This document shows, one piece after another, positions 4,801 to 64,000 of a DNA stretch of 64,000 bases (its first letter is position 1; the number at the start of each line of letters is the position of its first letter). This DNA is from Chlorobiota bacterium (GTDB lineage: Bacteria; Bacteroidota; Ignavibacteria; Kapaibacteriales; UBA2268). The position numbers were made by a program, and so were the translations under genes. Under the pieces are notes generated by a model. The model ran no database searches and had not been told where the DNA came from. It saw nothing but the letters and a program-made list of their open reading frames with translations. The stretch covers positions 64,330-128,329 of the forward strand of contig JBFHIJ010000005.1 of assembly GCA_041596515.1 (NCBI GenBank), in the 5' to 3' direction.

Positions 4801-6118
4801 CCGATTCGATTGCTTGTTTCATATTCCTAAAACTATTAGCTAATATGCCAATCTCATCTTTTTTGTCATATTCAATATTATTCGCAAGATTACCGGATGC
4901 TAGCTGATCTGCAATAATAGCAATGTCGTCTAATGGTTTCATAGTTTTTTTAGTAAACCAAAAAGCAAATAGTCCCATTAAAACATTAACAATTAGAGCC
5001 GTAACTATTGAAATCCAAATTAAGCTAACCAGCACACTCATCATGTTATCACTGAGTTCCATAAAATCCGATTTATAGGCACTAACCCCAATTACCCAGT
5101 CCCATGGTTCATAATAAACCACCATAGTAAGCTTTTCACGTGGCTTATCTTCTCCGGGATTTTGCCAGAAATAGTTATAAGCACCACTTTCATTTCCTTC
5201 TAAAGTATTTGCCAAATTAACTATGTCTTGAGCGACTTTCGATGTAGCTTTATTAGTAGATTCTATTAGGTTAATACCAACTTGTTTGTCATCTTTAGCA
5301 ATTATATATTCACCTTTTTTAGGTCCATTTCCTTGTAAGGAAAACACGTAACCGTCTTTACCAACTTCTATATCCATTATGTTTTGTCTTAATCTCTGAT
5401 CACTTTCCTGCTGAACACCAACAGATAGAATGCCGATTACTTTTGCATTGTTGTCTAATATAGGCTGATATATGGTAAGGTATACTTTACCGACAACAAA
5501 ATCAGACCCTCTAAATTCTTTTTTTGATAATATGGTTTGAATAACCGGATTTGGAGAACCATCAGGATTTGAAGCAGTGTAAAATGTACCTAAAGTACGT
5601 TTTCCTTCTGCATCAGGAGCCGTTGTAGCTACTCTTATCATGTCGCCGGCATCATTTGTTCTTTGAAAAATGGAAATAGCTACATCCATAGTTTGACCAA
5701 GCTGATCAATCAGAGGAGTAGTCTTAGTCATATCGACTGAATTACCTAACCACTGCGTACCTAAATAAAATTTTGGCAAATCAAAAGATAAAGTTTGCTC
5801 CATAAACTGATTATCAGCTTCCCAACTTACTTTTTCATTAGTTAGTTGCAAACCACCTTGAGCTTTTATTCTCTGATTTAATAATTCCAATGTGCTATTC
5901 AATTTACTATTGAGGACGCTATTAGAGGCATCACAAATTGAATATACATTCTTCGCAATTTGGCCGAGGTTTTGCTCAGTCATTTCACTTACCATTTTTA
6001 TATTTTCTTCTTCCGCACTATTCTTTTCAATTGTAATAATTGAAATTAAAATAATAAGTGGAAGAGTAATACATAAATTAGCAAGGAGAACAATTTTACT
6101 TCTAATCTTAAGTTGCAT
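1862..6118 (-). CDS. Methyl-accepting chemotaxis protein, 1418 aa (periplasmic Cache-like sensor, HAMP, five-fold repeated module, MCP signalling domain)
   Basis: TM1 [22 protein letters not shown], a ~330-aa extracytoplasmic region, TM2 [27 protein letters not shown] and HAMP ([29 protein letters not shown]). C-terminal highly conserved MCP core [40 protein letters not shown]. Confidence 0.92.
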
Positions 6119-8490: not shown

Positions 8491-8847
8491 ATGTTAGGCG
8501 AATATTTACCATTACTTATCATGATGATAGTAGGCTTTGCTGTTGCCGGCATTTTTCTGCTTTTTTCCGAATGGTTGGGAGCTAGGAGAGGCACGCCGGG
8601 CAAAGTAACTACTTATGAAAGCGGTATGGAACCGGTAGGTACAGCAAGAGATAGATTCTCTGTGAAGTTCTACATGGTTGCTGTATCATTTATTGTGTTT
8701 GACATCGAAGTAGTCTTTATGTATCCATGGGCAGTGACTCTTGGAGAAATGGGGCTTACTGCATTTTGGGCAATGACCACTTTTATTGTTATCTTATTTT
8801 TAGGATATTTTTGGGAATTGAAGAAAGGAGGCTTGGATTGGGACTAA
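8491..8847 (+). CDS. nuoA: NADH-quinone oxidoreductase subunit A
   Basis: 118 aa, three TM segments. [40 protein letters not shown] is the conserved NuoA core. Confidence 0.92.
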
Positions 8848-9467: not shown

Positions 9468-9700
9468 ATTGATATTTTTAATAAATATCTATGATTGAGT
9501 CCACTATTTCCAATTGTAATGTCCTTTATTGAACATATACTGTAACGTAACCGAACACTTCTTGCTCTAATTAATTTTGTATATTTAGACGTAGAAACAA
9601 TGTAAGTTTTTATATATCAGCTATGTATCCATTGTATAGAGATCTCATATATAATATTGGTACGTTATTGGGAATAGGTTAAATAGAGGATTTGAAAAAA

Positions 9701-13348: not shown

Positions 13349-15307
13349 GTGATTAGGAGCGGTTATTTGAAAATACCATTTATCATGATGATTAGCATCT
13401 TTACTATTTTAGTAACAAATTTGTTCTCGACAGACACATATAAATTAGATGCCCCTTCAAAAAGTGAGGAACTTGCTATTTCAAAAGTTGATAGCTTGAA
13501 TCATATTTCATTTACTAAGAGATTTGTTGATTTTGATGCCAGCATTGATTATGCTAAACGAGCAAAATCAATAGCTGATTCTATTGGTTATATTAGTGGT
13601 CAAGCTTATGCTATAAAGAATATAGGTACTGTAAAGTGGAATAAAGGTGAGTTTGCAGAGGCAAAAGATTTATACTACAAAAGTTTGGTTTTATATGAAG
13701 AGTTGCGTGATACAAGTGGCATAAGTAGATTATGGAATAACATAGGTCTCATCAGTATTACTCAAGATGAATATAATGTAGCTATAGAAAATCTCAAAAG
13801 CAGCATTCAGTTTAGCAAAATTGTAAGAGATACTGCAATGCTAAGCACAGCCTATTTAAATATTGGGATTTGCTATTACTATTTGAAGGAATACGAAGCT
13901 GCTATCTCCTACCATAAAAAAAGCATTTACTATTCACTCCAATCGAATGATATGTTAAGCCTTGCAAATAATTATAGTTTTCTGGGAGCAGAATATACTA
14001 TATTGAAGCAATATAAACCGGCTTTGGAAAATCTTCTTAAATCACTTGACATATTTGAAAGAGAAGATGCTACGCGAGGTATGGCTCATGTTGATAATCT
14101 TTTATCCGAATACTATCTGGCTACGAATGACTTTTCAAAAGCTATCAAATACGGAGAAAAGGCTCTTAAAATATCCGAAAATATACATTCATTAATCAAT
14201 TTATTTGAAGCAACAAACCACTTGAGCAAAGCCTGGGCAGAGCTGTCAGACTTTAAAAAGGCCTATGAATATCAAGGTTTAGCAGTGAAATATCAAAAAG
14301 AATTGATTGACGAAAAAAACAAACAAAGGATAGCTTATATTACAGCCGAATATAATTACGAAAAAGAATTGGATAAAATAGAAGTAGAAAAGCAAATTAC
14401 GTATGCAAAGCAGCAGAAGGATATTAGTGCACGTAATATGATAATCGGCATTATAAGTATTGTTGCATTCTTTCTTGCGATGTTTGCCATTTTTCTATAC
14501 AGATTGAATAGAAGCAGACAAAAGAAAAATCAATTATTAGTTTCTCAAAAAAGAAGTATAGACGAAAAAAATGTACAACTCGAAAAAATGAATACAGAAC
14601 TAAATACGCTCAATAAAACCAAAGATAAATTCTTTTCTATTATCGCACATGACTTGAAAAATCCTATTTATAACCTCAATTCTATTGCACAGATTATTTC
14701 TCAAGATTATGACACCATGGAAGATAAAGAAAAAATGGAATACATCTCCTTAATGGTGAACTCTTCGGAGCATGTATATTCTTTGCTTGAGAATTTGCTT
14801 ACTTGGTCGCGTTCTCAGAGAGATAAAATTGACTTTATGCCTGCAGAGGGAAACTTAATCCAAATACTAACTACAACTATAAATGGAGCAAAACTTTCTG
14901 CTACAAATAAAAATATCAAAATCGGGGTTGATATCAAGCAGGATCATGCTATATTTTCAGATTTTAATATGCTCAATACCATAGTGAGGAATATAATTTC
15001 AAATGCAATCAAATTTACTCCAAAAAATGGAAATATTGAAATAAGTTCGCATAAAAACAATCAATATGTGGAGCTATCTATCAAAGATTCAGGTGTTGGC
15101 ATGACCAAAGAGAAAATTGAGACTCTCTTCGTTACAGGAGAAAATACTTCAACTCCCGGAACTGAAAATGAAAGTGGCACGGGGCTTGGTCTTATTATCT
15201 GCAAAGAATTTGCTCTTAGAAATGGAGGCGACATAATCGTAAAAAGCCAAAAAGATATGGGAACTGAGTTTTTGGTTCTAATCCCCGACGCAAACCCAAA
15301 TGCGTAA
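13349..15307 (+). CDS. TPR-repeat sensor histidine kinase
   Basis: N-terminal hydrophobic segment, ~300 aa of TPR-like repeats and TM IIGIISIVAFFLAMFAIFLY. H-box FSIIAHDLKNP and HATPase boxes (NAIKFT, DSGVGM, GTGLGLIICKEF). Start uncertain (GTG 13349 or ATG 13385). Confidence 0.85.
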   Translation: MIRSGYLKIPFIMMISIFTILVTNLFSTDTYKLDAPSKSEELAISKVDSLNHISFTKRFVDFDASIDYAKRAKSIADSIGYISGQAYAIKNIGTVKWNKGEFAEAKDLYYKSLVLYEELRDTSGISRLWNNIGLISITQDEYNVAIENLKSSIQFSKIVRDTAMLSTAYLNIGICYYYLKEYEAAISYHKKSIYYSLQSNDMLSLANNYSFLGAEYTILKQYKPALENLLKSLDIFEREDATRGMAHVDNLLSEYYLATNDFSKAIKYGEKALKISENIHSLINLFEATNHLSKAWAELSDFKKAYEYQGLAVKYQKELIDEKNKQRIAYITAEYNYEKELDKIEVEKQITYAKQQKDISARNMIIGIISIVAFFLAMFAIFLYRLNRSRQKKNQLLVSQKRSIDEKNVQLEKMNTELNTLNKTKDKFFSIIAHDLKNPIYNLNSIAQIISQDYDTMEDKEKMEYISLMVNSSEHVYSLLENLLTWSRSQRDKIDFMPAEGNLIQILTTTINGAKLSATNKNIKIGVDIKQDHAIFSDFNMLNTIVRNIISNAIKFTPKNGNIEISSHKNNQYVELSIKDSGVGMTKEKIETLFVTGENTSTPGTENESGTGLGLIICKEFALRNGGDIIVKSQKDMGTEFLVLIPDANPNA

Positions 15308-16569: not shown

Positions 16570-19239
16570 TTATTTGGTTCTTAGTAGATATCTTTTAGGA
16601 AACTTGCAGTAAAAAGTGCTGCCTTTTCCTTCTTCCGTTTCAAATGACAATTCTCCATTAATTTTAGAGACGCAGTTTTTAGTGACTGTAAGTCCTAAGC
16701 CTGTCCCGGGAACTAAACCCCCTGTCTGGTTTCCTCTGTAGAATGGTGCAAATATCATTTCTTGTTCGCAGTCAGGTATTCCACAACCAAAATCCTGAAC
16801 AGCAATAATAATAGTACCCTCTAATTCTTCAGACTTTATGATAACTTTAGAGTCTTTAGGCGAATACTTAACAGCATTGAGCACAAGATTATAAACAGAC
16901 AGACGAGTTAGTCTTAAATCTGTATAAAGAGTTGGATCTTCTATAGTATTGATGTATTTAATTTTATGATTATATCCATCAATTATTTCTATTTCTTTTG
17001 CTACTTTCTCTATGCAGTTTTCTAGATTGAAAAGAGAAGGAACAAAAGTATAATCACCTTTATTATGGAAGACCATATCTAATGTGTTATCCAGCAGCCC
17101 TGTCATCGCATTTGACGCCTTCAATATCTTATCAATATGCTTGCCAAGCTTTGCATCATCAGACATATTAGCCAAACGCTCTATAATATAAGCAGAGGAC
17201 ATAATAACAGTAAGAGGAGTTCTATATTCATGAGAAATCATATCTATAAATCGAGATTTCAATTCGCCGGACTCCTGCTCTGACTCCAGACTTTTGGAAA
17301 CTTCAAGTTGTGCTTTTACCAGTTGAGCCCTCAGCTTCTGATTTCTTATATTTTCATCTTGTAGTGAGCTTATAGTTTGTTTCAACTTATTAGTTTTTGT
17401 TTCAACTTTTGTTTCTAATTCCTCAGTTTTATACTGTAAATCTCTGTGCATTAGTTCCTTGTCTGTGATATCTACTAAAACAATATTGTAACCTGTATCT
17501 TCGCTTAAGTTTTGCTTTGCAGCAATATTCATTCTTACATGTAAAAGATTTCCGCCGTGATCTATGGCATCAACATCTAAGTTTTTCAGCTTATTTACTT
17601 GCTCTAGTTGTAGAGCATTGCTTTCACTAAATATAAATTCCTGTAAATTCTTACCTAGTATGTCTTCTTCCTGATACCCTAATGTGTCCAAAAGAAACTT
17701 ACTGACTGTTTTGATAACATAATTGGAATCAGTAGTGATAAGCATCGCAGGAATAGATTGATATAAGGAATCAATCTCATTTTGTTTTGCCTGAAAAGCT
17801 TTTTCAGTGATTCTTAGTTTTGTGATATCTTGCGTAAAACCTACTATTCTTTTGGGATTTCCGCTATAATCCCTTTCTAATTTGCCTTCTATGTGTAATA
17901 CTTTTGTATTACCTTTTCCGGTAACAACTTTACATTCAAGAGTTTGTAAGGTTTCATTGTTTTTTACTCTTGAAAAGAAACGAAGGGTTTTGAATTTATC
18001 ATTTGGAACTATAGTCTTAATAAATTGTTTAAATCCAATTTGAGGTATGTCCACATCAAAGATTCTTTTAGTTTCATCAGAGTACTTAAAACTTTCAGTT
18101 GTTATATCGTAAAACCAGCTACCTGTGCATGAAAGCCTTTGAGTTTCTTGTAAAACTTCCTCATTCCTGTAAATATGTTCAACTTTAGCTAACGATGAGT
18201 CTTCAACGCTTATGCTGGAGACTAAAACCGGACGGCTATAGTCATCTACCAATTTAGTATTAGTTTTATGTCTCGAGACTATGCCTTTAGAATTACGAAA
18301 AGTTAAAGCATAATCTGATATAGATTTTTCTTTTAAAACTTTCTGAACGAGAGTCTCACGATCTTCAGGGTACTGATAAAATTTGGTTATGTTGTCACCT
18401 AATAAATTTTCTTTTGACTCACCAAAAGAAAATTTAACAGAGTCAGAAATATCTAAAATCTTACCTTCAATATCAGTTACACAGATAATATCTTTATGTG
18501 AATTCATTTCAAACTGAGAAGGCTCTTCTATTTTTACATACAACTTGTTTCCTAAATACTCAAATGGTTGCATATTGTTGCACTTGGGTGCAAGTTTACT
18601 GACAAAAGTATCTTCAAAAACTCTTTCAGGTATTTTAAAATTGCTACAGAGCAGTTTTTTATCTTCACTATAAATTGCAATCTCCTGAGGTAACATTTTA
18701 ATAAAGTATGTTAAAAATGCTATTTGATCACTTACAAAGGAGAGTTGCTTGTTTATTGGCTTTTTTGTGCTGTTGGCAAGTAATTTTAAATATTCAAACT
18801 CTTTATGTTTGAACTTACTTACATTTGTACTTATGCAGACTACAAGTGTTTCTTTTTCTTCCATTAAGGGTACAAGCTTTATTTCTCTCCATATCGTATT
18901 GTTTGCATTGATAAAAAATTCTATTGCCGGCAATTCCACAACATTGCCTCCCAGTGCTTCTTTGAATTTGTCATCTATGTCTATATAGTCTAAGCGTAAA
19001 TCTGACTTTATATTATAATTTTCTTCAAATTCAATATCTAAAGAGTTAGAGAGCAGAATGTTCCCGTCTGAATCGAATATATCTATTTGTGATTTTGCAT
19101 AAAAGAATATATCAAAACAACTCGCACCTAAGACTCCGGGGCAAGTTATTGTAGATTTGCTGTTTATTTCAGCCATTGCACTTTTATACTTAGGAAAAAC
19201 TTTTACAGTACCACCTAATTTATTTTTTGATATTTTCAT
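16570..19239 (-). CDS. Multi-PAS sensor histidine kinase, no obvious TM segment
   Basis: 889 aa. Several PAS-like blocks, a coiled-coil linker, H-box SRFIDMISHEYRTPL and the ATPase G-box GTGLGLTVTKNC. Confidence 0.85.
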   Translation of the reverse strand: MKISKNKLGGTVKVFPKYKSAMAEINSKSTITCPGVLGASCFDIFFYAKSQIDIFDSDGNILLSNSLDIEFEENYNIKSDLRLDYIDIDDKFKEALGGNVVELPAIEFFINANNTIWREIKLVPLMEEKETLVVCISTNVSKFKHKEFEYLKLLANSTKKPINKQLSFVSDQIAFLTYFIKMLPQEIAIYSEDKKLLCSNFKIPERVFEDTFVSKLAPKCNNMQPFEYLGNKLYVKIEEPSQFEMNSHKDIICVTDIEGKILDISDSVKFSFGESKENLLGDNITKFYQYPEDRETLVQKVLKEKSISDYALTFRNSKGIVSRHKTNTKLVDDYSRPVLVSSISVEDSSLAKVEHIYRNEEVLQETQRLSCTGSWFYDITTESFKYSDETKRIFDVDIPQIGFKQFIKTIVPNDKFKTLRFFSRVKNNETLQTLECKVVTGKGNTKVLHIEGKLERDYSGNPKRIVGFTQDITKLRITEKAFQAKQNEIDSLYQSIPAMLITTDSNYVIKTVSKFLLDTLGYQEEDILGKNLQEFIFSESNALQLEQVNKLKNLDVDAIDHGGNLLHVRMNIAAKQNLSEDTGYNIVLVDITDKELMHRDLQYKTEELETKVETKTNKLKQTISSLQDENIRNQKLRAQLVKAQLEVSKSLESEQESGELKSRFIDMISHEYRTPLTVIMSSAYIIERLANMSDDAKLGKHIDKILKASNAMTGLLDNTLDMVFHNKGDYTFVPSLFNLENCIEKVAKEIEIIDGYNHKIKYINTIEDPTLYTDLRLTRLSVYNLVLNAVKYSPKDSKVIIKSEELEGTIIIAVQDFGCGIPDCEQEMIFAPFYRGNQTGGLVPGTGLGLTVTKNCVSKINGELSFETEEGKGSTFYCKFPKRYLLRTK

Positions 19240-33197: not shown

Positions 33198-33363
33198 GTC
33201 TTACTCTCTGAAAAAGGCAAATAAAGATTGGATAAGAGCGATGCATTTAGATGTGTCGCTCTTTGTGTTTGTAGCCTTGGCTAATTAAATATTCTTTATT
33301 TTGTTTTATCAATATGTTTGATGATTTTTGAACCTCAAAAAAATTGCAGAAACTGAGACACTG

Positions 33364-34467
33364 ATGAAAAAGAAAATTATGATTATATATACCGGTGGCA
33401 CTATCGGTATGAAAAAGTCCGATAGAGGATATATTCCTGATCCGGATTTTGCTATAAAAGTAAGACAAATTCCCGAACTATACGAACCGGGTATGCCGGC
33501 ATTTGATATCGTTTCTCTTGAGCCTATTTTAGATTCTTCTAATATGAGCCCTGCAGATTGGGATTATATAGTTCGCATCATTTTTAAAAATTATCCCAAT
33601 TATGACGGCTTTATAGTGCTTCATGGCACTGACACTATGGCTTATACTGCATCAGCACTGTCATTTATGCTGGAAAACCTAAACGTACCGGTGATTGTTA
33701 CCGGTTCGCAAATACCTATGTGCGAAGTTCGCAATGATGCTCGCGATAATATTATTACTTCACTTCTTATTTGTGGAAGCATAGGCGATAAACTGAAAGG
33801 TAAAGTTACTTTATACTTCGAAAACAAGCTAATGCTTGGCTGCAGAACCGTTAAAACAGACGCTGTGGGCTTTTCTGCATTTGAGTCTCCTAACTTTCCT
33901 CCTGTGGCTAATGTAGGTGTTAAAATTGATATTAATCAGTTCACCCACGGGATAGAGTTTGATCCCGGAGTTTTCAAAGCACCGGAAGCTTCCCCTGTGG
34001 AAGATATGGTTCCTGCTCCAAGAGAAAATGAAGACGGCAAATTCCACTATATAGAAAGTGAATCAGGTAAGCGTTTTGAAGTAGCAGTAATCAGACTATT
34101 CCCGGGCATCTCCGGAGAGTTTATGCGAAACATAATGCAACCACCACTAAAAGGTATAGTAATCGAAGCTTATGGGGTAGGCAATGGTCCATCCAAGTTA
34201 GGCAATCCCGAGCTATTTAATGCGATAAAAGACGGTATAGATAAGGGAATAGTTGCGGTAGCGGTTACTCAGTGCCTGCGTGGTGGCATCATGCTGGATC
34301 AGTACGAAGCCTCACTTAAATCAGCAGGAGTAATGAGTGGAAAAGACATGACCACTGAAGCAGCTCTTGCTAAACTATATTATCTTATCAGTAAAAAGCA
34401 ATATTCAGAAAAAGAAGTAAGAAACCTCATAGGTAAAAATCTAAGAGGTGAACTGACAGATGTGTAA
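33364..34467 (+). CDS. ansA: L-asparaginase, type I (cytoplasmic) family
   Basis: IMIIYTGGTIGM (catalytic Thr motif) and VLHGTDTMAYTASAL (HGTDT motif). Start placed at ATG 33364 (MKKKIMIIY). Contains an acidic insertion (PEASPVEDMVPAPRENEDGKFHYIESESG) relative to what I remember of AnsA. Confidence 0.85.
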   Translation: MKKKIMIIYTGGTIGMKKSDRGYIPDPDFAIKVRQIPELYEPGMPAFDIVSLEPILDSSNMSPADWDYIVRIIFKNYPNYDGFIVLHGTDTMAYTASALSFMLENLNVPVIVTGSQIPMCEVRNDARDNIITSLLICGSIGDKLKGKVTLYFENKLMLGCRTVKTDAVGFSAFESPNFPPVANVGVKIDINQFTHGIEFDPGVFKAPEASPVEDMVPAPRENEDGKFHYIESESGKRFEVAVIRLFPGISGEFMRNIMQPPLKGIVIEAYGVGNGPSKLGNPELFNAIKDGIDKGIVAVAVTQCLRGGIMLDQYEASLKSAGVMSGKDMTTEAALAKLYYLISKKQYSEKEVRNLIGKNLRGELTDV

Positions 34468-34556: not shown

Positions 34557-34707
34557 AAAACAGGCATATCCTCTTTCAAAGATATGCCTGTATAAAATAT
34601 AATCAACCCTGGGATTTTCGCCCCAGGGTCTTAGATAACCCCATGATTGCTATAGAAACTATTCTATTTTCTAAACTTCGCGATAAACTCTTCCACTTCC
34701 GGTATGC
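34557..34707 (-). repeat. Direct repeat, left copy (terminator hairpin + extra GC hairpin + gatD 3'-end core)
   Basis: 34557-34591 equals 37141-37176 except for a 1-nt loop indel. 34651-34707 matches 37190-37246 at 54 of 57 positions. The left copy carries about 46 extra nt with the 8-bp hairpin accctggg/cccagggt (34606-34629). Confidence 0.85.
34560..34591 (-). terminator. Terminator hairpin (left copy), downstream of the cassette and facing ansA
   Basis: acaggcatatc / gatatgcctgt form an 11-bp perfect stem with a 10-nt loop. TTTT follows on the minus strand (aaaa at 34557-34560 on plus). Confidence 0.65.
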
Positions 34708-34714
34708 TTGCTTG
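34664..34714 (-). pseudogene. Orphan 3'-terminal fragment of gatD (16 codons plus stop)
   Basis: The minus-strand translation reads QASIPEVEEFIAKFRK*, against QGGIPEVEEFIAKFRK* at the true gatD end. There is no gatD body upstream, since it abuts the stop of the 152-aa ORF at 34733. Confidence 0.6.
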
Positions 34715-34732
34715 GGAGATAGCAGTTTGAGG

Positions 34733-35191
34733 CTAATAGTTATTATTTTCAAGCTTAGTCAATATAATTTGCTTCAAGTGATTAGTATCTCTAGGATTAT
34801 CTTGAAACATTTCTTTGTAACTTATAGATGTAGTCTTACCATTTCGGATTATAATCATACTTGGAGTGTATCCAATATTATAGTTTAATAGCTCAAAACT
34901 ATCAAATCCTAATCTATTTTTCGTTTCTTTAAAGTATATATCATCATAATCAATCTTTGCTGCGAACATTTTAGATAGAACCATTGCGGATGGTTTGTTT
35001 TTTACAGACTTTGTTATCAAAATAGTCTTGTAATCTAATTTCCATAAATGCTGCAAAGAACTTAAGTCCTCTAAACATTCTTTACAGTATAAATTATCGC
35101 ATACAATAATAACAGAGTTATCTATCTGCTCAATATCAAATGGCTCAAGATTAATAGTAAAATATATCAATGCAAGTATGACTATTTTCAT
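34733..35191 (-). CDS. Thioredoxin-fold protein with CxxC (CKEC) motif and N-terminal signal/anchor
   Basis: 152 aa. Hydrophobic N-terminus MKIVILALIYFTI. Beta-strand VIIVCDNLY followed by CKEC. A cis-Pro-like loop GYTPSMIIIRNGK lies in the expected position. 4-nt ATGA overlap with the upstream ORF. Confidence 0.65.
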   Translation of the reverse strand: MKIVILALIYFTINLEPFDIEQIDNSVIIVCDNLYCKECLEDLSSLQHLWKLDYKTILITKSVKNKPSAMVLSKMFAAKIDYDDIYFKETKNRLGFDSFELLNYNIGYTPSMIIIRNGKTTSISYKEMFQDNPRDTNHLKQIILTKLENNNY

Positions 35192-36288
35192 TTTATATCT
35201 CTAACAATTATTTTATAATCTGAGTAAGTTTCTCTATTAAAATGTGTAGAGATTAAGTGCCCATCTAATATTTTGTAGTCCATACTGAAAAACAAATTTG
35301 ACTTAGAATAATCTTTTTGTTGTAAAGAGTTCATTGAAACATCTTTTTTCACTAATTCCCATACGCCATCAATATTCTTCCAAACATCATAATATAAATC
35401 ATAAACACTGATATCGCCTTCTTTTCTTCGATTTTCCATAGAGTAAGTAACTAATATTTTATCCTTGGTAAGAAAATCAGCTCTGTGAATCAAAGAAACC
35501 TTTGTTGTATCAGATTGAATTTTTTGAACATAGTTTCTCCAATTTTTGTCTTTGGAGTCTTTGTGTAGATTAGAAGAAACCCAATCAGGTATTTCTCTTA
35601 TAATAGAATCTTGTATATTCCCATTCATGTTTCGCAGATACAATTTATATTTTAATATTTCAGAAGTAAGTATTTTTCCTTCCGAATAATCTATTATGCT
35701 TCTTGGCTGAAAAATGGTATAAAAGAAAGCTTTTGGAGGAGGGAAACTAAGATACTTACTGTTTTCAATATTTTCGAGATTTAAACACCAAAAATGATAA
35801 TCTTCCTCTTCTTTTTCAATAGCATCGTAAATATCATACATTCCGAAGATTTTGTTGTCTTCTAAATACATATTTCTGGATACTCCTGCATACTCTCTAT
35901 CTGGGAATATATTTTTAAGGTTAAACCACGTGCACGTTGAAAAAGAATCCACTTCGTTGTATATAATAACATAATCGCTTAAAATCAAAGCTAACTTGCC
36001 TTCCCCAAATGCTAAATTTCGAATTGTATACATACCCAAAGGATAGTTTAATTTTAACTTCGGAATCTTTAGCTCTATTTTGTCAGAAGAAATATCTTCC
36101 AATTTATTAAGTGTGAAAATTGAATTGGTAGTTATCTGCCTATTGGTACAATAGATATCAGCATTTATTTTAACATAACTATATTCTTTTGTACCAATAG
36201 CTACTTCTTGATTAGTATTTGAAGCAAAGTTAAAATCAAATATTCCATCTGATGCAAATAAAGACAAAAGTATTAACAATATATTCAC
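35188..36288 (-). CDS. Hypothetical secreted protein (366 aa), family not recognised
   Basis: GTG start preceded by AAGGTG. Hydrophobic N-terminus MNILLILLSLFAS. Beta-rich, Asn/Lys/Tyr-rich composition. Translationally coupled to the downstream thioredoxin-fold ORF. Confidence 0.6.
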   Translation of the reverse strand: MNILLILLSLFASDGIFDFNFASNTNQEVAIGTKEYSYVKINADIYCTNRQITTNSIFTLNKLEDISSDKIELKIPKLKLNYPLGMYTIRNLAFGEGKLALILSDYVIIYNEVDSFSTCTWFNLKNIFPDREYAGVSRNMYLEDNKIFGMYDIYDAIEKEEEDYHFWCLNLENIENSKYLSFPPPKAFFYTIFQPRSIIDYSEGKILTSEILKYKLYLRNMNGNIQDSIIREIPDWVSSNLHKDSKDKNWRNYVQKIQSDTTKVSLIHRADFLTKDKILVTYSMENRRKEGDISVYDLYYDVWKNIDGVWELVKKDVSMNSLQQKDYSKSNLFFSMDYKILDGHLISTHFNRETYSDYKIIVRDIK

Positions 36289-36351
36289 AATAACACCTTA
36301 TTATATTTACAATAATCTCCAAGTTTCAAAATCACTTGGAGATTTATACTT

Positions 36352-36825
36352 CTACTCATCATCTTCTGTAATCGAAATAGTAAATTCAAAAATATTAGTT
36401 TCTAAATCTATAGACCACTCAACACATCTGTAATATTTTATACCATATTTTTCTATATTCAGATGTTTTGTTCCTGACAAATTTCCATTTTCTACTTCTG
36501 TTTCAGCATATTCTTCTAATTCCTCTACCTCAGCATTTATAAATAAATCTGATTCAATACATCCTTCACACCATACTATTTCTGGTGAACCAAAACTACA
36601 TTCAGAACCTCTCTGATCAGGGTGTCTACAAACCAATACACAAGCATCATCTGTACATTTTATCCATGCCTCTAAATATCTTCCACCAATAGTAATATCG
36701 GGACCATCAATCCCCATACTCGAACTAGCAGATTTCGTACCAGTATAAGTAGCACTACGTACTGCAAAGGATGAAATAGTTGTAGCTATAAGCATTACAA
36801 CTATTATAAAAATCTTTTGATACAT
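36352..36825 (-). CDS. Hypothetical secreted Cys-rich acidic protein (157 aa)
   Basis: Start placed at ATG 36825 (AGAGG 6 nt upstream), giving the signal peptide MYQKIFIIVVMLIATTISSFA. Seven Cys, six of them within KCTDDACVLVCRHPDQRGSECSFGSPEIVWCEGC. Acidic C-terminal half. Confidence 0.6.
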   Translation of the reverse strand: MYQKIFIIVVMLIATTISSFAVRSATYTGTKSASSSMGIDGPDITIGGRYLEAWIKCTDDACVLVCRHPDQRGSECSFGSPEIVWCEGCIESDLFINAEVEELEEYAETEVENGNLSGTKHLNIEKYGIKYYRCVEWSIDLETNIFEFTISITEDDE

Positions 36826-36888
36826 AAAATACCTCTTGTAAAAGAATAACATACATACAAAAATTGTTGTAGTATGATTTACAAGGGC

Positions 36889-36917
36889 TATAATAATAAT
36901 AATAATAATAATAATAA
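36889..36917. repeat. Trinucleotide microsatellite, (TAA)9 on plus strand = (TTA/ATT)9 on the cassette strand
   Basis: ta(taa)9 read directly at 36889-36917, which is 64-92 nt upstream of the ATG at 36825. Confidence 0.95.
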
Positions 36918-37140
36918 CTTCCAAATATATTTTTCATTTTGTATGGAATATACTTATGTATTTCAAGATTAAAATCATATTCTAACTTCATGTATTAATT
37001 GCATTTGATAGGTATTGTGTTATAAAGAACAAACAAATAAAACTCGAGACAGAGCAGTAACCAAAGCTAAATTTATGTTGAGTATAGTCACAGCAGAGTG
37101 TATTCGCCACACATAAAGAAAGATATTTTTCAATCCTAAA

Positions 37141-37246
37141 AAAACAGGCATATCCTCTTATCAAAGATATGCCTGTTTTTATAGAAATATATAGAAATCA
37201 TTCTATTTTCTAAACTTAGCGATAAACTCTTCCACTTCCGGTATGC
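37141..37246 (-). repeat. Direct repeat, right copy (gatD terminator + authentic gatD 3' end)
   Basis: See the left copy. This copy also includes a local 10-nt tandem atagaaatat/atagaaatca (37181-37200). Confidence 0.85.
37144..37176 (-). terminator. gatD intrinsic terminator
   Basis: acaggcatatc / gatatgcctgt form an 11-bp stem with an 11-nt loop. T7 follows on the minus strand (aaaaaaa 37137-37143 on plus). It lies 27 nt past the gatD stop. Confidence 0.75.
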
Positions 37247-38594
37247 CACCTTGGAATACAAGATAGCCGTTAGAAGGTTCTCTTTCTGTGATTTCACCGT
37301 TTACAGGTGTATTCATTATTTTCATAACTTCGGCTTGATCCTGAGTTTGACCCAAAGCCCAGCCTAGTTTGATATATGCAACTTCAGGAAGCATGTTAGC
37401 AAGTGGGATTACACCCAACTCCATCATTTCTCTACCTGTTTCGTATACATACATCTGAACGTAACCCCAGAGAGTCTGAACAGTCATGTAAACGTGAACG
37501 CCTTTTTCCTGTGCACGTTTAAGTGCAGGATAAAGCGGTTTATTTACGTGACCAAGACCTGTACCTGCTATTACAATACCTTTGTAGCCCTTTTCCACTA
37601 AAGAATCAATGATGTCAGGCTGCATATTTGGATAGTAATAAACGATAGTTACTTTTTCTTCAAAAGTAGGGATTAGCTTAAATTCTTTGTCTCTTCTGCG
37701 TTTAGAGTAATCTTCTCTTAGCGGATTAATCGCTTCTTTGTTAACCATTGCAAGCGGAATGTCACCGATAGTTCTAAAAGTAGAGCGATATGAAGAGTGC
37801 ATCTTTCTTACGCGAGTACCTCTGTGGAGCAAACCATATTCATCGGAAGTAGGTCCGAACATACACACCATAACCTCTGCAATGTCAGATTCTGCTGCAG
37901 TTTTAACACTATGAATTAGGTTAAGAGCTGCATCAGACGAAGGTCTGTCAGAAGATCTCTGAGAGCCCACCATAACAATTGGTACAGGAGTGTTTTGAAG
38001 CATAAAAGTAAGAGCCGCAGCAGTGTGGTGCATTGTATCAGTACCGTGACCGATTACAACACCTTTTACGCCTTGCTCTATCTCTGCGGCAATAGCTTTA
38101 GCAGTGCCAATCCACTCAGCAGGTCCCATGTTTTCAGAAAACACGCCATAAAGCTTTTCTGTTTCTAAGTTGCAGTAATCTGCAAGCTCAGGCACAGAAC
38201 CATAAAGTTCGCCCGGAGAGAAAGCAGGAATAACAGCACCAGTTCTATAGTCAAGGCGACTTGCTATAGTACCACCTGTACCAAAGAGTTTTACTCTCGG
38301 TTTTTTAGGTGAATAAGGGAAAGCCTGTTCAGGTATTTTATAATTGGCAATTTTTCTACCAACTACCTCGATATCTAAAATATTGTTTACATGGATACCG
38401 ACATTATAACCAGTTCTAAGCTTCAAAACGATATGAAATTCGTCTGCTTGCTCAGCTCTTGGCAAAATAAGACCAATATGAGTTCTTTCGTCAGAAGTTT
38501 TAAGTTTAACATCGCTCCAGATTAAAGCTTTATATTTTTTAAGCATCTCCAATCCGGCACCGCGATAGCCTTTGTAATCTTCATTCATAGCCAT
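37203..38594 (-). CDS. gatD: Glutamyl-tRNA(Gln) amidotransferase subunit D (archaeal-type, asparaginase fold)
   Basis: N-terminal beta-domain (VKLKTSDERTHIGLILPRAEQADEFHIVLKLRTGYNVGI), then an asparaginase domain with LFGTGGTIASRLDYRTGAV and VIGHGTDTMHHTAAAL. Start placed at ATG 38594 (GGAGG 9 nt upstream), 1 nt after the gatE stop. Confidence 0.85.
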   Translation of the reverse strand: MAMNEDYKGYRGAGLEMLKKYKALIWSDVKLKTSDERTHIGLILPRAEQADEFHIVLKLRTGYNVGIHVNNILDIEVVGRKIANYKIPEQAFPYSPKKPRVKLFGTGGTIASRLDYRTGAVIPAFSPGELYGSVPELADYCNLETEKLYGVFSENMGPAEWIGTAKAIAAEIEQGVKGVVIGHGTDTMHHTAAALTFMLQNTPVPIVMVGSQRSSDRPSSDAALNLIHSVKTAAESDIAEVMVCMFGPTSDEYGLLHRGTRVRKMHSSYRSTFRTIGDIPLAMVNKEAINPLREDYSKRRRDKEFKLIPTFEEKVTIVYYYPNMQPDIIDSLVEKGYKGIVIAGTGLGHVNKPLYPALKRAQEKGVHVYMTVQTLWGYVQMYVYETGREMMELGVIPLANMLPEVAYIKLGWALGQTQDQAEVMKIMNTPVNGEITEREPSNGYLVFQGGIPEVEEFIAKFRK

Positions 38595-38595
38595 C

Positions 38596-40518
38596 TTACA
38601 CTTCCTCCGACGAAAATTCATTTACAAGTTTTAGTATGTCAAATCCATTTACTCTACCACGAAGCTTTTTCATTATAGAACCCATCAGAATTTTACCTTT
38701 TCTGTCAGGGTATTTGATGCGAATTTTCTTGATTACATCGCGAGCTTCATTGATTCTGCCTTTCATTTCAGATTCGGAGCATTTTTCCGGAAGATTATCT
38801 TTAGAAATTTCACCAAGCACTATCGCACGTTTTAGTGCATCATAGATGCCATCTTTAGCAAGTTTGCCTGATTTATATAACTCAAAGATAGTAAGGAAGT
38901 GCTCTTCATTTAAAAATTCAGTTTCCAAGCCTGCTTTCTTCAGTCTTTTAACAAACTGAGTCAAGGTAACTGCAGCAAGTATTGGATCTACATCCATAGC
39001 AACAATTTTGTCAAATGTAGAAGCAAAAGGAGAAATAGCTAAAGACTTGATAGAATCTTCAGGAACTCCAAGTCTATAGTATTTAGATTCTCTTTCCCAA
39101 TATGGTTCAGTAAGTGAGTCTTTGATTCTTTGCAATCTTTCAGCCGAAATAGTTTTTGGAGGAAGATCTGTATCAGGGTACATCCTTTCAGGGCCGGGCA
39201 ATATGCGTTCGAAGCCGGTTGTGCCATCTATAAGAGCTTGCCTTGTTTCTGAAGGAATACCGATAGTAGCTTCTTTTGCTCTGATAATAATTTCGTTGAC
39301 GCCAGTTTTTACATCTTCTTCACTACCCCAAACAAGTACTATAGAATCCATATCGGTAGCACCAACTGCTTTTTTCAAAGAGCTCCATTCATGAGAAGAA
39401 AGCTTTTCGGAAGGGCTGTCAGAGTGAATAATGTTTGGCAAGTCAGAAAGGCAAGCAATAACTCGTACTCTGTCAGAAATCTCTTTAGAAAATACAGTAT
39501 CAGTTTGAGTTTGCCAAGTAAGAAGATTTTTGAATCCTTTAAGCCTAACGCAGCTAACCTTTTTGTCGTTGTCAATCACATCTTTGATGACTTGGAAGCG
39601 AGTCTTTCTTAAAACTTTAGTTACATCTTTGGAGTTTGCCTCAAAAGTTTCTTCAGTGATGCCTCTATTTGCCAACTCATCTTTGAGTCTAAGCAAATTC
39701 CACTGTCTCATAGCTTCATTATAAGTAAGGCGTGGCACATTTTTTATTTTGTGAACACCTTTGATTTCGATACGAGTGCCACCGGTAACAGAAACGTTAA
39801 CGTCCTGCCTGCCTGCACCTATACCGGTGCGAACATGACCGGTAGAGCGAGCTATTCGTCTTATGATTTCATTTACTTCCGCTACTTCCTGAGGAGTTTT
39901 CATTTCCGGTTCAGTAACAGTTTCGATAAGTGGCATGCCTAAGCGGTCAGTCAAATATATACGAGTGTGTCCCTGATCGCTAAATTCGCGACAGGAATCC
40001 TCTTCTATAGACATCTGAATAAGATTGATAGTCCTATCTTTATAGGGAATAGAGCCACCAATGCAAGTGATAGCAGTTCTCTGGAAACCAGTAGGGATGG
40101 AGCCATCCAAGTACTGTTTTCTGGCAATATGAAGCTCATTAACGATAGTAGCGTCATAGAGCATACCAACTTCAATTGCGATGTCTAAAGCTTGATCATT
40201 AATCTGGAATGGAGGAGTGTCGTCCATTTCATAAGTACAAACAGTATCGTAGTTAATGCGATAAAGAATTTCTTTTTTTGTTTTGAATTCCATTAATGCA
40301 GTGCCGTCATATTCACCGAGTTCGGAGAGAGTTGGTCTCATGTGGCGTAAAATTTCAGCATTGTATTTGTGGTTGTTGTAATGACCGGCAGGGCAGCGGC
40401 AAAAAAGCTTTTTATCGGTTAAAAGTTGCTGGTGAACTTCCAAACCGGATTTAAAACCAATTTTTGCATAGTCCTCGTTGGTCATTTCTTCAAAAGGTTT
40501 AAACTTGAAATCAGACAT
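38596..40518 (-). CDS. gatE: Glutamyl-tRNA(Gln) amidotransferase subunit E (archaeal-type)
   Basis: 640 aa. GFKSGLEVHQQLLTDKKLFCRCP, RPTLSELGEYDGTALMEF, GSIPTGFQRTAI, LTDRLGMPLIETVTEP, GAGRQDVNVSV..RIEIKG and a C-terminal GatB/YqeY-like tail. Length and insertions fit GatE rather than the ~480-aa GatB. Confidence 0.85.
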   Translation of the reverse strand: MSDFKFKPFEEMTNEDYAKIGFKSGLEVHQQLLTDKKLFCRCPAGHYNNHKYNAEILRHMRPTLSELGEYDGTALMEFKTKKEILYRINYDTVCTYEMDDTPPFQINDQALDIAIEVGMLYDATIVNELHIARKQYLDGSIPTGFQRTAITCIGGSIPYKDRTINLIQMSIEEDSCREFSDQGHTRIYLTDRLGMPLIETVTEPEMKTPQEVAEVNEIIRRIARSTGHVRTGIGAGRQDVNVSVTGGTRIEIKGVHKIKNVPRLTYNEAMRQWNLLRLKDELANRGITEETFEANSKDVTKVLRKTRFQVIKDVIDNDKKVSCVRLKGFKNLLTWQTQTDTVFSKEISDRVRVIACLSDLPNIIHSDSPSEKLSSHEWSSLKKAVGATDMDSIVLVWGSEEDVKTGVNEIIIRAKEATIGIPSETRQALIDGTTGFERILPGPERMYPDTDLPPKTISAERLQRIKDSLTEPYWERESKYYRLGVPEDSIKSLAISPFASTFDKIVAMDVDPILAAVTLTQFVKRLKKAGLETEFLNEEHFLTIFELYKSGKLAKDGIYDALKRAIVLGEISKDNLPEKCSESEMKGRINEARDVIKKIRIKYPDRKGKILMGSIMKKLRGRVNGFDILKLVNEFSSEEV

Positions 40519-60040: not shown

Positions 60041-63000
60041 TTAAAAGTCAAAACTCTCGTGCTCGCTCGGTGGTAATGATTGAGTTTCTCTTCTGTCAAG
60101 AAACGCCTGACCGGTAGACATTTTTCTGTCTATTTTGAATTTTTTCATTACTTTTTGTAGATTCTCTGTCATTTGGGCTAAAGTTTCAGATGATTGAGCT
60201 ATAGCCTCTATATTCTTGGCAGAATTAACGGCAACCTCGGAAATATTAGTAACATTTTTAGCTAATTGTTCTCCGGTGGCTGCCTGCTGTTCGGAGGAAG
60301 TGGCAATAGAATTTACCATATCCAGCACATCTTCGGAGCTTTGGACTACTTTATTTAAAGCGTCGCCTGCATTATCAGCAAGAGTAATCCCAGTTTGCAC
60401 TTCATCAGTACCTTTTTTCATTACCATCACCGCTGATTCTGTTTCTTTTTGAATACTATTAATCATATTCGATATCTGTTTTGTAGCATCCGTAGTTCTT
60501 TCAGCCAATTTTCTTACTTCATCAGCTACCACAGCAAAGCCTCTGCCTTGTTCACCGGCACGTGCAGCTTCTATAGCAGCATTAAGAGCTAATAAATTAG
60601 TTTGATCTGCAATTTCTTCAATCACTGAAATAATAGTTCCAATTTCAGTAGATGATTGACCAAGCTTTTCAATGTTTGTAGCAGATTGTTGTACAACTTC
60701 AGCAATTTCTTTCATCTTTTCAATTGTCTGGATTACTACTTGACCGCCATCCTTAGCTATTTTACCATTATTATCAGCAAAGTTCGCTGTTTTATTAGCA
60801 TTGGTGGAGTTTTCGGTAATAGTCATACTCATTTCTTCGATTGCAGATGCAATTTCTTCGACTTGTGAGCTCTGTTCGTGAGATGAAGTTGCGACGCTGT
60901 CTGATGCATTAGAGATCTCAGTCGAAGCATTAGCTACAGAAACTACAACATCATTAAGTTGGGTAAGTAAGTCAGAGAGTGACTCACCCAACGAGTTTAT
61001 GCTCTCTTTTAGTTTTTCATGATCTCCGCGATAGTTGCCTACCATACGTACTGTCATATCTCCTGAAGCTAGAACTTCCAGCACTTCGCCTGCCTCTTCG
61101 ATAGGTGCAACAACTGCATCTAAAGTCTGATTTATTCCTGATACGATATCATTCCATCTACCCGGATAGCCGGAGGTGTCTATTCTCTGTTTCAAATCGC
61201 CTTGAATAGCTTTTTCAGCACTGCCCGCTGTGTCGTCTATCAAGTTTTGTATAAAGTCTGCAAGAGTATTAATGTACTCAGCAAGACTACGGTATTCACC
61301 TTGATACTCATTGATATTCAGTTTTACTAAATCCTCACCTTTTGAGACTTTATTCAAGAAAGAAAGAGTTGTGTTGAATTCAGTTGTAAAAGCATCAATT
61401 GTGCTATTAACACCTAAAATAACATTAGCAAAATCACCATTATGTCTCTCTGCATCTGCTCTGACACTAAAATCACCACTGATTGCAGCATCTGATAGCT
61501 TTTGCGCATCTTCTACAAGTGCTCTTATGGCTTCCATCATTTTGATAAATGAAGGCGTAAGCTCATCATCAGAAGATAGTTTGCCATTTGTTTTAAGCAG
61601 CTCAAGTTTGGACAAATCGCCATTACTAATCTCTATTGCCAGACCTAAAATCCTTTCAAGTTTACCTATAGTATTTTCTATTGCATTTTGTAATTGTTTC
61701 CACTTGCCTGAATATTGGCGAGTAATTTTTACGGAAAAGTCGTTGTTTGAAATAGATTCTAAAATATGTAAACATTCGTTTATGGGCTGAGTCATGCCAA
61801 TAAACATTTGATTAATGCCTATAATAAGCTCTTTCCATCCACCGGTAAAGATGTCTTCATTGCCTCGAAAATCTAACTCACCGGCGTGAGCGGCTTCTAT
61901 CAGATTAGCTATTTCGTTGTGAATATTAGTAAGATTTGTGCGGAGTTCATTAGTTCTCTCAGTTGCAATAATCCTTTTACCCGGAAGTTCTTCCAACTCT
62001 TCAGTAAAGTTGCCGTTTGCGTAATCTGAAAGGATATCTAATATTCTCATCATCACATTTACGTGATCGCGAACAGTAGCATTTACACCTAATGCCATCT
62101 GCTGATACGCTCCTGTAAATTTGGCTTCATCTATGAAAATATCAATTTCACCTTTTGCTTGCTCTTCACTCATGTATTGCATTTCAGAGATAAATGTAGA
62201 CAAATTATTAATAAGCCCATTGATGTTTTTTTTAATCTCATTGAAATCACCGTAGAATTCTGCTGTGATTGGCTGAGGAATGTCACCTTTAGAAATTCTA
62301 TCGATGTACTGAGCAGAAATATTAATAGGCTCAGTAACAGCGTCCAAAGTTTTGTTAAATCCGCCTATTAATTGCTTGAATGCACCTTCGTAATTATCTT
62401 CATTGCCTCTTACATCCAGCTTGCCTGCCTGAGCTCCATCTATCAGACCTTGAAGCTCATTAGCCATATCTAAAATGTTATTTTTCATTCTGTTAAGATT
62501 GTTATTAGCTATAGCTTGCTTACCCGGAAGAGGTTTCAAAGTAGGTTTCATATTGCCCTTGCCATAAGCACCGAGTATGGCAAGAATTTTTTTAATATTG
62601 TTTATGTAAACGCGAACTGCATCGTTGCTACTGTGAGCCATAGATTTATAAATTCCGGAAAATCTTTCTTCGTTTATAAAATAGTCAGTGTCGCCGTTTA
62701 CTCTATGCTCGTGTATAAATTGTTCTATTTCAGTGCTATAGTTAGTGAGGTTATCAATCAGCATGTTTATGTTATTTTTAAGCTCATTAAAGTCACCATT
62801 GTAAGTAGCTGTGATTTTGGGAGGCAAATTACCCTCGGAGATTTTAGCTATGTAACCTGCTGCAGTATCTAATGGAAGAACTAAAGCATCGAGTGTGCGG
62901 TTAAAGCCACTAATCAAATCGCCAAATGCACCGGGATATTTAGACACATCTCCTCGCTTGCCCAGATTGCCTGCCTCTGCAGCTAATGTCAATTCTTTTG

Positions 63001-64000
63001 TTTCTTCTATCAGATTGCTTTGAATCGACATTAGTTTTCTAAAAGCATCCGCCAAGGCACCTAACTCATCTCTGCCCTTATAATCACATTTGATATTTAC
63101 GTTACCTGTAGAAACTGATTCTGCATATTCTCGTATCTTTTCGATAGGTTGTGAAAATGATTTGGTAAAGAAGTAGATACCTACCTGAGCAAACACCATA
63201 AAAAACAAACTGCCTAAAATAAGCTCTATAATTATATCTATAGTTGCAGCTTGGATTTCGCTTGCAGGTACGTCTATTTTTAAGAACCAAGTCTGATTAG
63301 TCTTAGAAATTACAATTGGCTGAGTAATAGTAAAAGTTTCACCGATTGTTTCTGCATAAGTTGAATCTAATAGCCTGTAACTTACTTTATTTGAATAATC
63401 TGAATAAACAGATGAGATGTTGTTCTGTATCGTCGAATCACTTGCAGAATTAGCACAGATATCACCCTCACCAGTAAATAGTGTGATATTGCCTGAGTTG
63501 TTGAAAATATTTTGTTTCGTCAATTCTTTTTGAAGATTGTCGATATTTAACCCGATAACATTGAAGGCAAGAGTTTCGCCTTTGATATGAATTGGCACTA
63601 AAACGTTTGCAGTAAAGATACTATCGCCGTTGATGTCCCTTTTTACTGTATTAGAAACAAGAATTTGTTGTGATTCAAATCCTTTTGCAATTTCTTCTTC
63701 GGTAAGAGCAGCAGTAATGTCAAATTGGCTATTACCGATATCCCCTTTAATAATGCCGGGAGAGAATCTGCCCAGAGCGGAGTCTAAGTTATCAAAAGCA
63801 TTCTCTTTCCAGTATGAGCCAACATATAAGATGTCATTATCTACGTCAGTAAAAGAGCTTAACTTTTCACTAATGGAACTTCTATTTATATCGTTAGTAA
63901 CCTTATAAGTGCTTTGGATGTCTTTAGCAGTCAGTTCTGCTACAATTATTGCCTTGTCTATAGAAGACTTTATTCTTTCGGCTTGGCTATCCGAAAGTGC
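60041..64000 (-). CDS. Methyl-accepting chemotaxis protein, paralogue of the 1418-aa MCP; 5' end outside window
   Basis: I translated the minus strand from 63598 to 64000 and found no stop ([42 protein letters not shown]...). The GTG at 63598 is therefore internal and the periplasmic sensor continues beyond the window. [28 protein letters not shown], five repeat motifs and the MCP core [40 protein letters not shown]. Confidence 0.9.

Follow-up and report, generated by a model that had tools for sequence, protein, structure and literature searches.

The 64-kb stretch of Chlorobiota bacterium contig JBFHIJ010000005.1 analysed here (the window) holds, directly downstream of gatD, three co-oriented genes followed by ansA, which is convergent to both this cassette and gatD (Table 1). 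The cassette is bracketed by two direct repeats, each made of the 3' end of gatD and a terminator-type hairpin, and related genomes carry other genes in the same place between repeats of the same kind. We describe these repeats and their relatives, and argue for a gatD-anchored slot in which cassettes would be exchanged by ordinary recombination. An initial annotation of the window had pointed to an AT-rich segment of three open reading frames (ORFs), and this description holds: the three cassette ORFs have the lowest G+C contents among 36 ORFs tested, against a window mean of 36.2% and 40-41% for gatD and ansA.

Table 1. Features of the gatD-ansA interval and its flanks (positions in the window; U1 and U2, proximal and distal copies of the repeated unit).
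Feature	Position	Strand	Remarks
ansA-type asparaginase, far-side conserved flank	33328-34467	+	Asparaginase N- and C-terminal Pfam domains; L020 copy with 99% amino-acid identity
AT-rich hairpin of distal unit U2	34557-34591	-	stem CAGGCATATC.../...GATATGCCTG; whole-unit fold z = -4.5
GC hairpin inside distal unit	34605-34630	-	GACCCTGGGG-loop-CCCAGGGTT; strong fold
Displaced gatD pseudo-tail	34651-34732	-	16 terminal codons and stop well kept, then decaying similarity
Cassette gene 3, 152-aa exported protein	34733-35191	-	CKEC (CxxC) motif; G+C 27.2%
Cassette gene 2, 366-aa exported protein, signature gene of the slot	35188-36288	-	predicted all-beta propeller; G+C 28.6%
Cassette gene 1, Cys-rich secreted protein	36352-36924	-	ORF of 190 aa; G+C 30.4%
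AT-rich hairpin of proximal unit U1, gatD's own intrinsic terminator	37137-37183	-	folds; homology to L020 breaks here
True gatD tail and short spacer, source sequence of pseudo-tails	37190-37294	-	stop codon 37203-37205
gatD, anchor gene	37203-38621	-	Pfam GatD_N, Asparaginase, Asparaginase_C
gatE, upstream of gatD	38596-40518		Pfam GatB_N

The hairpin AAAACAGGCATATCCTCTT / TCAAAGATATGCCTGT is present twice, at 34557-34591 and 37141-37176, with a single loop base separating the copies and arms that read AAAACAGGCATATC-loop-GATATGCCTGT at both sites. A 57-nt core (34651-34707 versus 37190-37246) is identical at 54 of 57 positions, and the ungapped match of the gatD tail widens to 65 nt (34651-34715 versus 37190-37254; 59/65, 91%). 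The right core is the real 3' end of gatD, and the left core translates as QASIPEVEEFIAKFRK followed by a stop codon at 34664-34666, keeping the last 16 codons of gatD with no gene body behind them. The initial annotation had recorded the two hairpins, the 54/57 core and a GC hairpin in the left copy, all of which were reproduced; its statement that similarity decays beyond 34708 needs correction, since by our reading a weaker match of ~79% with a 6-nt deletion continues to ~34732, the stop codon of the 152-aa ORF. This pair of gatD tail and hairpin is the sole direct repeat of its type in the window. When its loop was fixed at 10 nt, so that the left copy alone fits, a hairpin pattern gave one match in the window and none in 100 shuffles. 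The proximal hairpin folds at -28.9 kcal/mol (z = -6.5) into an 18-bp stem with a U-run in gatD sense, and the variable DNA starts immediately past it. An A-run and a T-run flank the stem of the distal hairpin, which can therefore terminate transcription in both directions, of ansA and of the cassette.

The relatives of its gatD place the window in Candidatus Kapaibacterium, in the Ignavibacteria group; all data are from metagenome-assembled genomes (MAGs), five or six of them from this genus. Comparison of five genomes (the window, L020, L081, L082 and L083) revealed a repeated unit, U, at every block boundary, with 12 copies in all: two each in the window, L020, L081 and L082, and three tails with four hairpins in L083. 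In gatD sense, U comprises ~75-92 nt from the gatD tail and the stop codon, followed by a short spacer, in some copies a GC hairpin (AACCCTGGGG...CCCCAGGGTT), and the AT-rich hairpin CAGGCATATCTTTGA(T)AAGAGGATATGCCTG with a T-run after it, amounting to ~170-230 nt. The first four genomes hold one displaced tail each, and L083 holds two complete ones and an 18-nt remnant. A homologue of the GC hairpin lies in the unit beside the true gatD end in L020, L081, L082 and L083, and in the distal unit in the window. The cassette-side edge of U is constant and falls directly after GCCTGTTT, the gatD-side edge varies from ~-18 to ~-92 nt within the genus and lies farther upstream in L022, described below, and the variable DNA spans from the end of the U1 hairpin to the gatD-side edge of the next unit. 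The C-terminus of GatD, QGGIPEVEEFIAKFRK, is unchanged in all five genomes.

The exact hairpin occurred at this locus alone, in three genomes, among 185,579 species-representative genomes, and this confinement rules out a dispersed repetitive extragenic palindromic (REP)-like element. The single metagenome hit was a near-identical hairpin, GGGCATATCTTTGAAAGAGGATATGCCT, at L089:657-682, on an unrelated contig of 2.6 kb where it terminates a different gene; it is either a coincidence or a common terminator motif. A scan against Rfam gave two matches only, both far under their gathering scores. In L090 (6686-8000), a more distant Kapabacteria chromosome, gatD is followed by the GC-hairpin homologue and no other hairpin, the AT-rich one being absent; a DDE transposase gene (DDE_Tnp_1_4, 7.5e-33) lies ~350 nt past it.

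The content of the slot differs among these relatives. L020 (CAXXGR010000002.1) is 92-93% identical to the window in nucleotides on both flanks, sharing p312, gatE and gatD on one side and ansA, rpsU and pgi on the other, and its gatD-ansA interval measures 1.5 kb and contains one gene, 40% identical to the 366-aa protein of the window and bracketed on both sides by gatD tail and hairpin. L081 carries three genes homologous to all three window genes and L082 carries one gene, both with a Fic gene as the far flank. In L083 gatD is followed by a run of three blocks, with a unit copy bounding every one of them, which comprise a type III-A retron (PADLOC E-values: PRTase 1.4e-83, WH 3.4e-8, reverse transcriptase (RT) 4.5e-131), one gene, and a lipoprotein gene; the far flank is different again. 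Relatives with the same genes in the same place therefore carry the repeats as well, whereas the initial annotation had named their absence from such relatives as the sign of an ancestral arrangement. The signature gene is 52% identical within the three-gene type, 60-84% within the one-gene type and 40-45% between types, values that indicate two allelic lineages. Cassette types differ between L081 and L082, whose gatD genes are 99.1% identical in nucleotides, and between the window and L020, whose gatD genes are 93.3% identical; host phylogeny does not predict cassette type. In the window and L020 the gene for p312, a DUF5829 protein, is found upstream of gatE, and in L081 and L082 it is found downstream of the slot, past Fic; the gatE-gatD-slot block therefore stands in a different or inverted context between species.

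The empty site that the initial annotation proposed to look for, gatD followed by one terminator and ansA, was not found, and the slot is filled in L020, the only other genome with this flank. A search for other strains of the organism with the window's GatD protein, taken as 463 or 472 aa, returned no record.

The proteins encoded in the cassette are exported or secreted. The 366-aa protein has, by our reading, an N-terminal signal peptide, and its predicted structure is all-beta, of low confidence (pLDDT 58.7, pTM 0.60), and resembles beta-propellers, among them the exported Bacteroides proteins 4raa and BtuG. Its close family counts six members in 5.8 billion proteins, and all five members on contigs that show their neighbours sit directly downstream of gatD. 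A profile search with this protein found 128 remote relatives, and in 10 of 10 of those tested a Pfam match was absent. The 152-aa protein has as its sole homologue the 150-aa protein of the L081 cassette (64%), apart from a weak DUF5886 match, and its CxxC motif suggests a thioredoxin-like protein. The Cys-rich protein and its 154-aa homologue in the L081 cassette share 61% identity in an alignment that starts at Met34, and the 190-aa ORF probably begins in reality at this residue, giving 157 aa at 36352-36825. As a guess from sequence, the CxxC protein could be a thiol-disulfide partner of the Cys-rich protein. An (ATA)9 / (TAT)9 run lies at 36890-36917, ~65-90 nt upstream of the Met34 start (36825) of the Cys-rich gene, and is rendered as an isoleucine stretch by the mechanical ORF call; it might change in length and thereby influence expression of this gene. 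Elsewhere in the Kapabacteria, at L003:9812-16891, about five tandem paralogues of ~420 aa lie directly downstream of gatD, in units of ~1.43 kb that are 88-94% identical, and carry a type IX secretion system (T9SS) C-terminal sorting domain; a relationship of these genes to the 366-aa family was rejected (hhalign probability 0.5%).

The initial annotation had reported no integrase, transposase, inverted terminal repeats or tRNA at the cassette, and our domain, inverted-repeat and tRNA searches agree with it. No tRNA gene is present in the 64-kb window, ruling out a tRNA as the insertion target. The three window cassette proteins matched nothing above Pfam thresholds and nothing in NCBIfam or PADLOC, the last of which rules out a defence identity for these genes; signatures of toxins or immunity proteins were likewise absent from the cargo in all three collections. 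Recombinase and transposase domains were absent from the 10 neighbouring proteins scanned, within ~10 kb, no recombinase was found among the cassette proteins of L081 or L083, and the inverted-repeat scan gave no arm pair positioned at both cassette ends. Integrases do not figure in the 25 Pfam families to which 114 ORFs downstream of gatD, from 76 other species, gave the most matches, a list that leaves out families matched by a single ORF, where one integrase could hide. No phage or plasmid record matched the DNA of 34557-37246, and a phage or plasmid origin was ruled out on this lack of similarity. GC skew in the window tracks gene orientation without a global switch; the peak of cumulative skew at ~34.4 kb is such a switch of gene orientation, and the idea of a dif site or replication terminus here was rejected.

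Measured against known classes of mobile DNA, the locus shares single features with some of them. Direct repeats that duplicate the 3' end of a target gene, as left by integrase-borne islands, are present, with no recombinase gene inside the element. Xer-dependent elements and integrative mobile elements exploiting Xer (IMEX) use dif modules, in which a 28-bp XerC/XerD site at the replication terminus is duplicated on both sides of the element, and the unit, a repeat of ~170-230 nt with stems of 10-18 bp, is not a dif-like 11-6-11 site. Transposons and insertion sequences (IS) are not matched by a locus with no transposase, a duplication of >100 nt, a variable gene-side edge and copies that differ synonymously. 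Integrons and clusters of attC sites lacking integrases (CALINs) are not matched either: no intI lies nearby, the stems are perfect and conserved attC cores are missing. As candidate attC-like cores in the GC hairpin we considered GTTGAAT in L083, and rejected them, as by our reading GTTRRRY/RYYYAAC is not kept across the 12 copies. The RT of L083 raised the question of a diversity-generating retroelement (DGR) with variable and template repeats (VR/TR); this was also rejected, as the window has no RT and the copy differences are not adenine-specific, and the L083 enzyme itself is part of a complete type III-A retron.

The differences between tail copies are informative about where the copies came from. 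In L083 the spare and true tails differ at seven positions, 7/7 at third codon positions and all synonymous. In L022, an Ignavibacteriaceae MAG, 30 differences are distributed 6/3/21 over the three codon positions, with 18 synonymous and six non-synonymous codons. Decay of copies that arose in situ would strike positions at random, which argues against such an origin, and the spare tails appear to be the tails of other, once functional gatD alleles. The true tail of L083 is of L083 type until ~40-55 nt before the stop and then continues with an allele and spacer common to L020, L081 and L082, and the displaced U2 of L083 differs at every such site, sharing 2/4 states with the true gatD tail of L090. 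This pattern matches the prediction of displacement by incoming DNA.

These observations bear on the simplest account of the repeats, an in-situ tandem duplication or long target-site duplication that decayed passively and had no role in exchange. Both window copies do carry a window-specific ATA codon, and the pseudo-tail with its junction is common to the window and L020, so that this copy must predate their split. We nevertheless regard this account as very improbable: copy differences are strongly biased to synonymous third positions, the unrelated blocks of L083 each have their own unit, cassette types are traded between lineages exactly at unit edges, and a tandem duplication brings no new genes. 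The left copy is not the remnant of an unrelated decayed gatD duplicate, an outcome that the initial annotation had allowed for. An artefact of assembly, in which a bin contains a chimeric join or strain variants that were collapsed, would fit with all sequences coming from MAGs and with the short contig L092 ending near an expected unit. It is hardly credible for an architecture that recurs, with lineage-specific copy differences, in five assemblies made independently from different samples, whose contigs measure 0.13-3.65 Mb.

Recombination through gatD itself was visible in pairwise comparisons. L020 is 95-99% identical to the window over gatE and the first ~600 nt of gatD, and 94-100% identical to L081 and L082 from ~nt 680 of gatD onwards, with mostly 77-92% identity to these upstream of that point and 67-68% in the lowest windows. 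The tract of high identity between L020 and L082 runs through U1 and ~200 nt into the gene of the one-gene cassette. Therefore, the 3' half of gatD, the unit and the start of the cassette moved between lineages by homologous recombination, and gatD reads as a mosaic between lineages. Breakpoints lie where homology has its edges: between L081 and L082, homology is lost where the U1 hairpin ends and returns ~47 nt before the pseudo-stop of U2, and these two places are non-equivalent in the two units; the density of single-nucleotide polymorphisms (SNPs) in their flanks is low on both sides without a gradient.

Together, we lean, with some reservation, towards a gatD-anchored cassette slot made by what we term tail displacement, with cassettes exchanged by ordinary recombination. 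DNA from a related cell would bring a gatD 3' end, its terminator and other genes, and would cross over homologously within gatD or its tail. The far end would join illegitimately in the resident tail, or homologously with a tail copy already there. Since the incoming DNA brings its own tail, gatD would stay intact, and the resident tail and terminator would move downstream to become a non-coding repeat. Repeated rounds would stack cassettes, and each unit would give its block its own terminator. The units would also act as portable homology, by which RecA-type recombination could exchange cassettes, insert further ones or loop them out wherever a genome bears gatD, regardless of the DNA on the far side. 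The repeat architecture, the exchange of cassettes, the foreign tail alleles and the interspecies tracts are seen directly in the compared genomes, and from these we infer the displacement steps.

The initial annotation had proposed that a DNA segment entered at the gatD 3' end with duplication of its target. Acquired, exchangeable DNA with attL/attR-like boundaries stands, and a single element making a target duplication is disfavoured, because the spare tails differ mainly at synonymous third positions. Its further suggestion of a lost mobilising function fits less well, as the variable edge, the mosaicism of gatD and the tract that passes through the unit point to recombination by gatD homology.

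Several observations weigh against tail displacement. Most gatD-side tail edges fall at about -73 to -92 nt, a clustering tighter than expected from independent illegitimate joins and fitting a defined unit that was later eroded. Across its 12 copies the AT-rich hairpin, like its loop, is nearly invariant, while the gatD genes of most of these genomes are 7-14% apart in nucleotides; a plain terminator would be expected to drift, and this near-invariance needs either homogenisation by recombination or sequence-specific recognition. The window and L020 have their spacer and loop types exchanged between proximal and distal units, which a single displacement history explains only if a further conversion step or a circular intermediate is added, and with spacer and loop types mosaic in this way we reached no consistent stepwise history of the four units of these two genomes. 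In L083, U2 and U3 are 99.4% identical over 157 nt, which requires a conspecific donor or gene conversion. In the short contig L092 a one-gene cassette is followed by Fic with the unit absent. Finally, neither a vacant site nor an excision product was seen in the MAG data of the five or six genomes.

Part of this evidence would suit a different reading, in which the unit, and above all its invariant hairpin, is an att-like site, with the gatD tail as part of it, and a recombinase acting in trans from the genome or a helper element moves circles of cassette plus unit, much as in integrons, IMEX or satellite elements. The constant cassette-side boundary directly after GCCTGTTT, the near-invariance of the hairpin including its loop, the L083 stack with one unit per block and the close identity of U2 and U3 there would all follow, and the exchanged spacer types of the window and L020 would be explained most simply by a circle that re-integrated with a different crossover point. 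We consider this reading unlikely, given that no recombinase is found in any cassette or within ~10 kb, that the hairpin occurs nowhere else in these genomes and has the form of an intrinsic terminator, that the GC hairpin lacks, by our reading, the conserved attC-like GTTRRRY/RYYYAAC cores and that a replication-terminus signal is missing. The non-equivalent breakpoints of L081 and L082 and the high-identity tracts that begin deep in gatD and cross the unit also speak against it. In a stronger form, which we hold to be rather more doubtful, the unit would be a true recombination site whose hairpin is read by a recombinase encoded elsewhere, forming an integron-like, integrase-in-trans platform at the gatD terminator in Kapaibacteria; such a platform would capture defence systems, as the L083 retron, and genes for surface proteins.

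Alternatively, the blocks could be relics of ordinary integrase-bearing islands or prophages whose attB was the gatD 3' end, with the tail restored by attP and the integrase and most other genes later deleted, so that cargo was left between attL and attR. Classically, such elements leave direct repeats of the 3' end of a gene, and AT-rich cargo, foreign tail alleles and the similar tail length (~75-92 nt) of several copies would agree with them. However, this requires independent near-total decay in at least seven blocks in five genomes with no integrase fragment left, the 25 commonest Pfam families downstream of gatD in 76 other species (single-ORF families unlisted) include no integrase, and the window cassette does not resemble phage or plasmid records. 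We therefore judge decayed islands to be improbable, and return to tail displacement as the reading that we favour.

A self-repeat scan for gene-tail duplications in 1.26 Mb of related loci showed tail repeats outside the Kapaibacterium arrays for gatD in L022 and for one other gene in L080. In L022 a gatD pseudo-tail of ~145-170 nt (repeat at 8494-8532 and 13525-13665) lies 5 kb downstream of gatD, and the block between contains, on the opposite strand, genes for a TonB-dependent receptor, a DUF4249 protein and a PEGA/propeller lipoprotein. This bracket arose independently of the Kapaibacterium arrays, as did the one at another gene in L080. This pseudo-tail adjoins the stop codon of an opposite-strand 369-aa ORF, PP2C/SpoIIE-phosphatase-like by our reading. 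In L080, an 82-nt repeat (2580-2661 and 3344-3425; 92.7%) comprises ~65 nt of the tail of a gene for a 507-aa aromatic amino-acid lyase plus ~15 nt and flanks a 182-aa ORF for an IS200-like Y1 transposase (Pfam Y1_Tnp, 1.1e-6); in its coding part, 3/3 differences are at third codon positions. In L062 a direct repeat of 80 nt with 92.5% identity (9522-9601 and 16931-17010), free of gatD coding sequence, has its first copy ~120 nt past the gatD stop and its second 7.4 kb farther downstream; the block between them includes ORFs of 969 aa (sensor-like) and 515 aa (solute-symporter-like), again by our reading.

The GatD/GatE amidotransferase is usually regarded as archaeal. Here gatD and gatE form an adjacent gene pair in a bacterium (37203-40518), and 588 relatives were confirmed in bacterial MAGs labelled Ignavibacteria, Kapabacteria, Aminicenantes and others. 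Elsewhere in the window, three 186-nt repeats that are 63-73% identical (3999-4184, 4542-4727 and 62208-62393) lie within the long ORFs 1862-6118 and 60041-63598; they are probably HAMP-type modules, because ORF 1862-6118 matches a 1418-aa Cache/HAMP sensor in L081 and L082.

Many variable slots between core genes, including hotspots of anti-phage defence, have no mobility genes, and how they are constructed is an open question (PMC10250203). If tail displacement is correct, an essential conserved gene would serve as a universal homology handle through which related species trade short blocks without a dedicated recombinase, and the repeats left behind would ease the stacking and loss of blocks. 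The scars record the order of arrival, donor alleles and recombination breakpoints, and a gene tail and terminator repeated downstream give a simple search signature. They open a testable path to the construction of variable slots that lack a recombinase, defence hotspots among them.

Among known systems, core defence hotspots share with this locus a core-gene flank, variable content (with a retron in one genome), the lack of mobility genes and homologous recombination in conserved flanks as the suspected route. In contrast to these, the slot is small, its content is mostly not known defence, and each block has a visible scar of gene tail and terminator that points to the mode of addition. Integron arrays (attI/attC, IntI) and CALINs are alike in the repeated hairpin after each short, promoter-poor block and in stacking and shuffling, and unlike in that no intI was found here, the stems are perfect and of terminator type without attC cores, and the repeat holds coding sequence of a neighbouring gene and a hairpin restricted to one locus. 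Integrase islands with attL/attR sites in the 3' ends of tRNA or protein genes also have repeats that duplicate a 3' end, a gene restored by the incoming copy, AT-rich cargo and possible tandem blocks. Here, neither an integrase nor an excisionase was found in any block or close to one, the blocks consist of only one to three genes, the gene-side edge is variable and tracts start far inside the gene.

The closest likeness is to the displacement arrays of Rhs/CdiA and Vibrio type VI secretion system (T6SS) loci. In both cases a conserved upstream gene acts as homologous anchor, arrivals push the prior 3' end downstream and leave orphan ends, a recombinase gene is missing, and related strains have different modules in one place. 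The Kapaibacterium loci show an anchor gene with a string of displaced 3' ends, ends that appear to derive from once functional alleles, and tracts through the anchor; they show neither toxin tips and immunity genes nor a replaced anchor C-terminus. The anchor here is the essential housekeeping gene gatD rather than a toxin gene, its C-terminus is unchanged, the displaced piece includes terminator hairpins, and the cargo is an exported beta-propeller gene set, a retron and a lipoprotein gene instead of toxin/immunity pairs. For the displaced 3' ends that form strings in Vibrio T6SS arrays and in Rhs loci, illegitimate recombination facilitated by homology was put forward (PMC5361080); by analogy, the gatD slot would apply a displacement-type array, already proposed for T6SS and Rhs loci, to a housekeeping gene.

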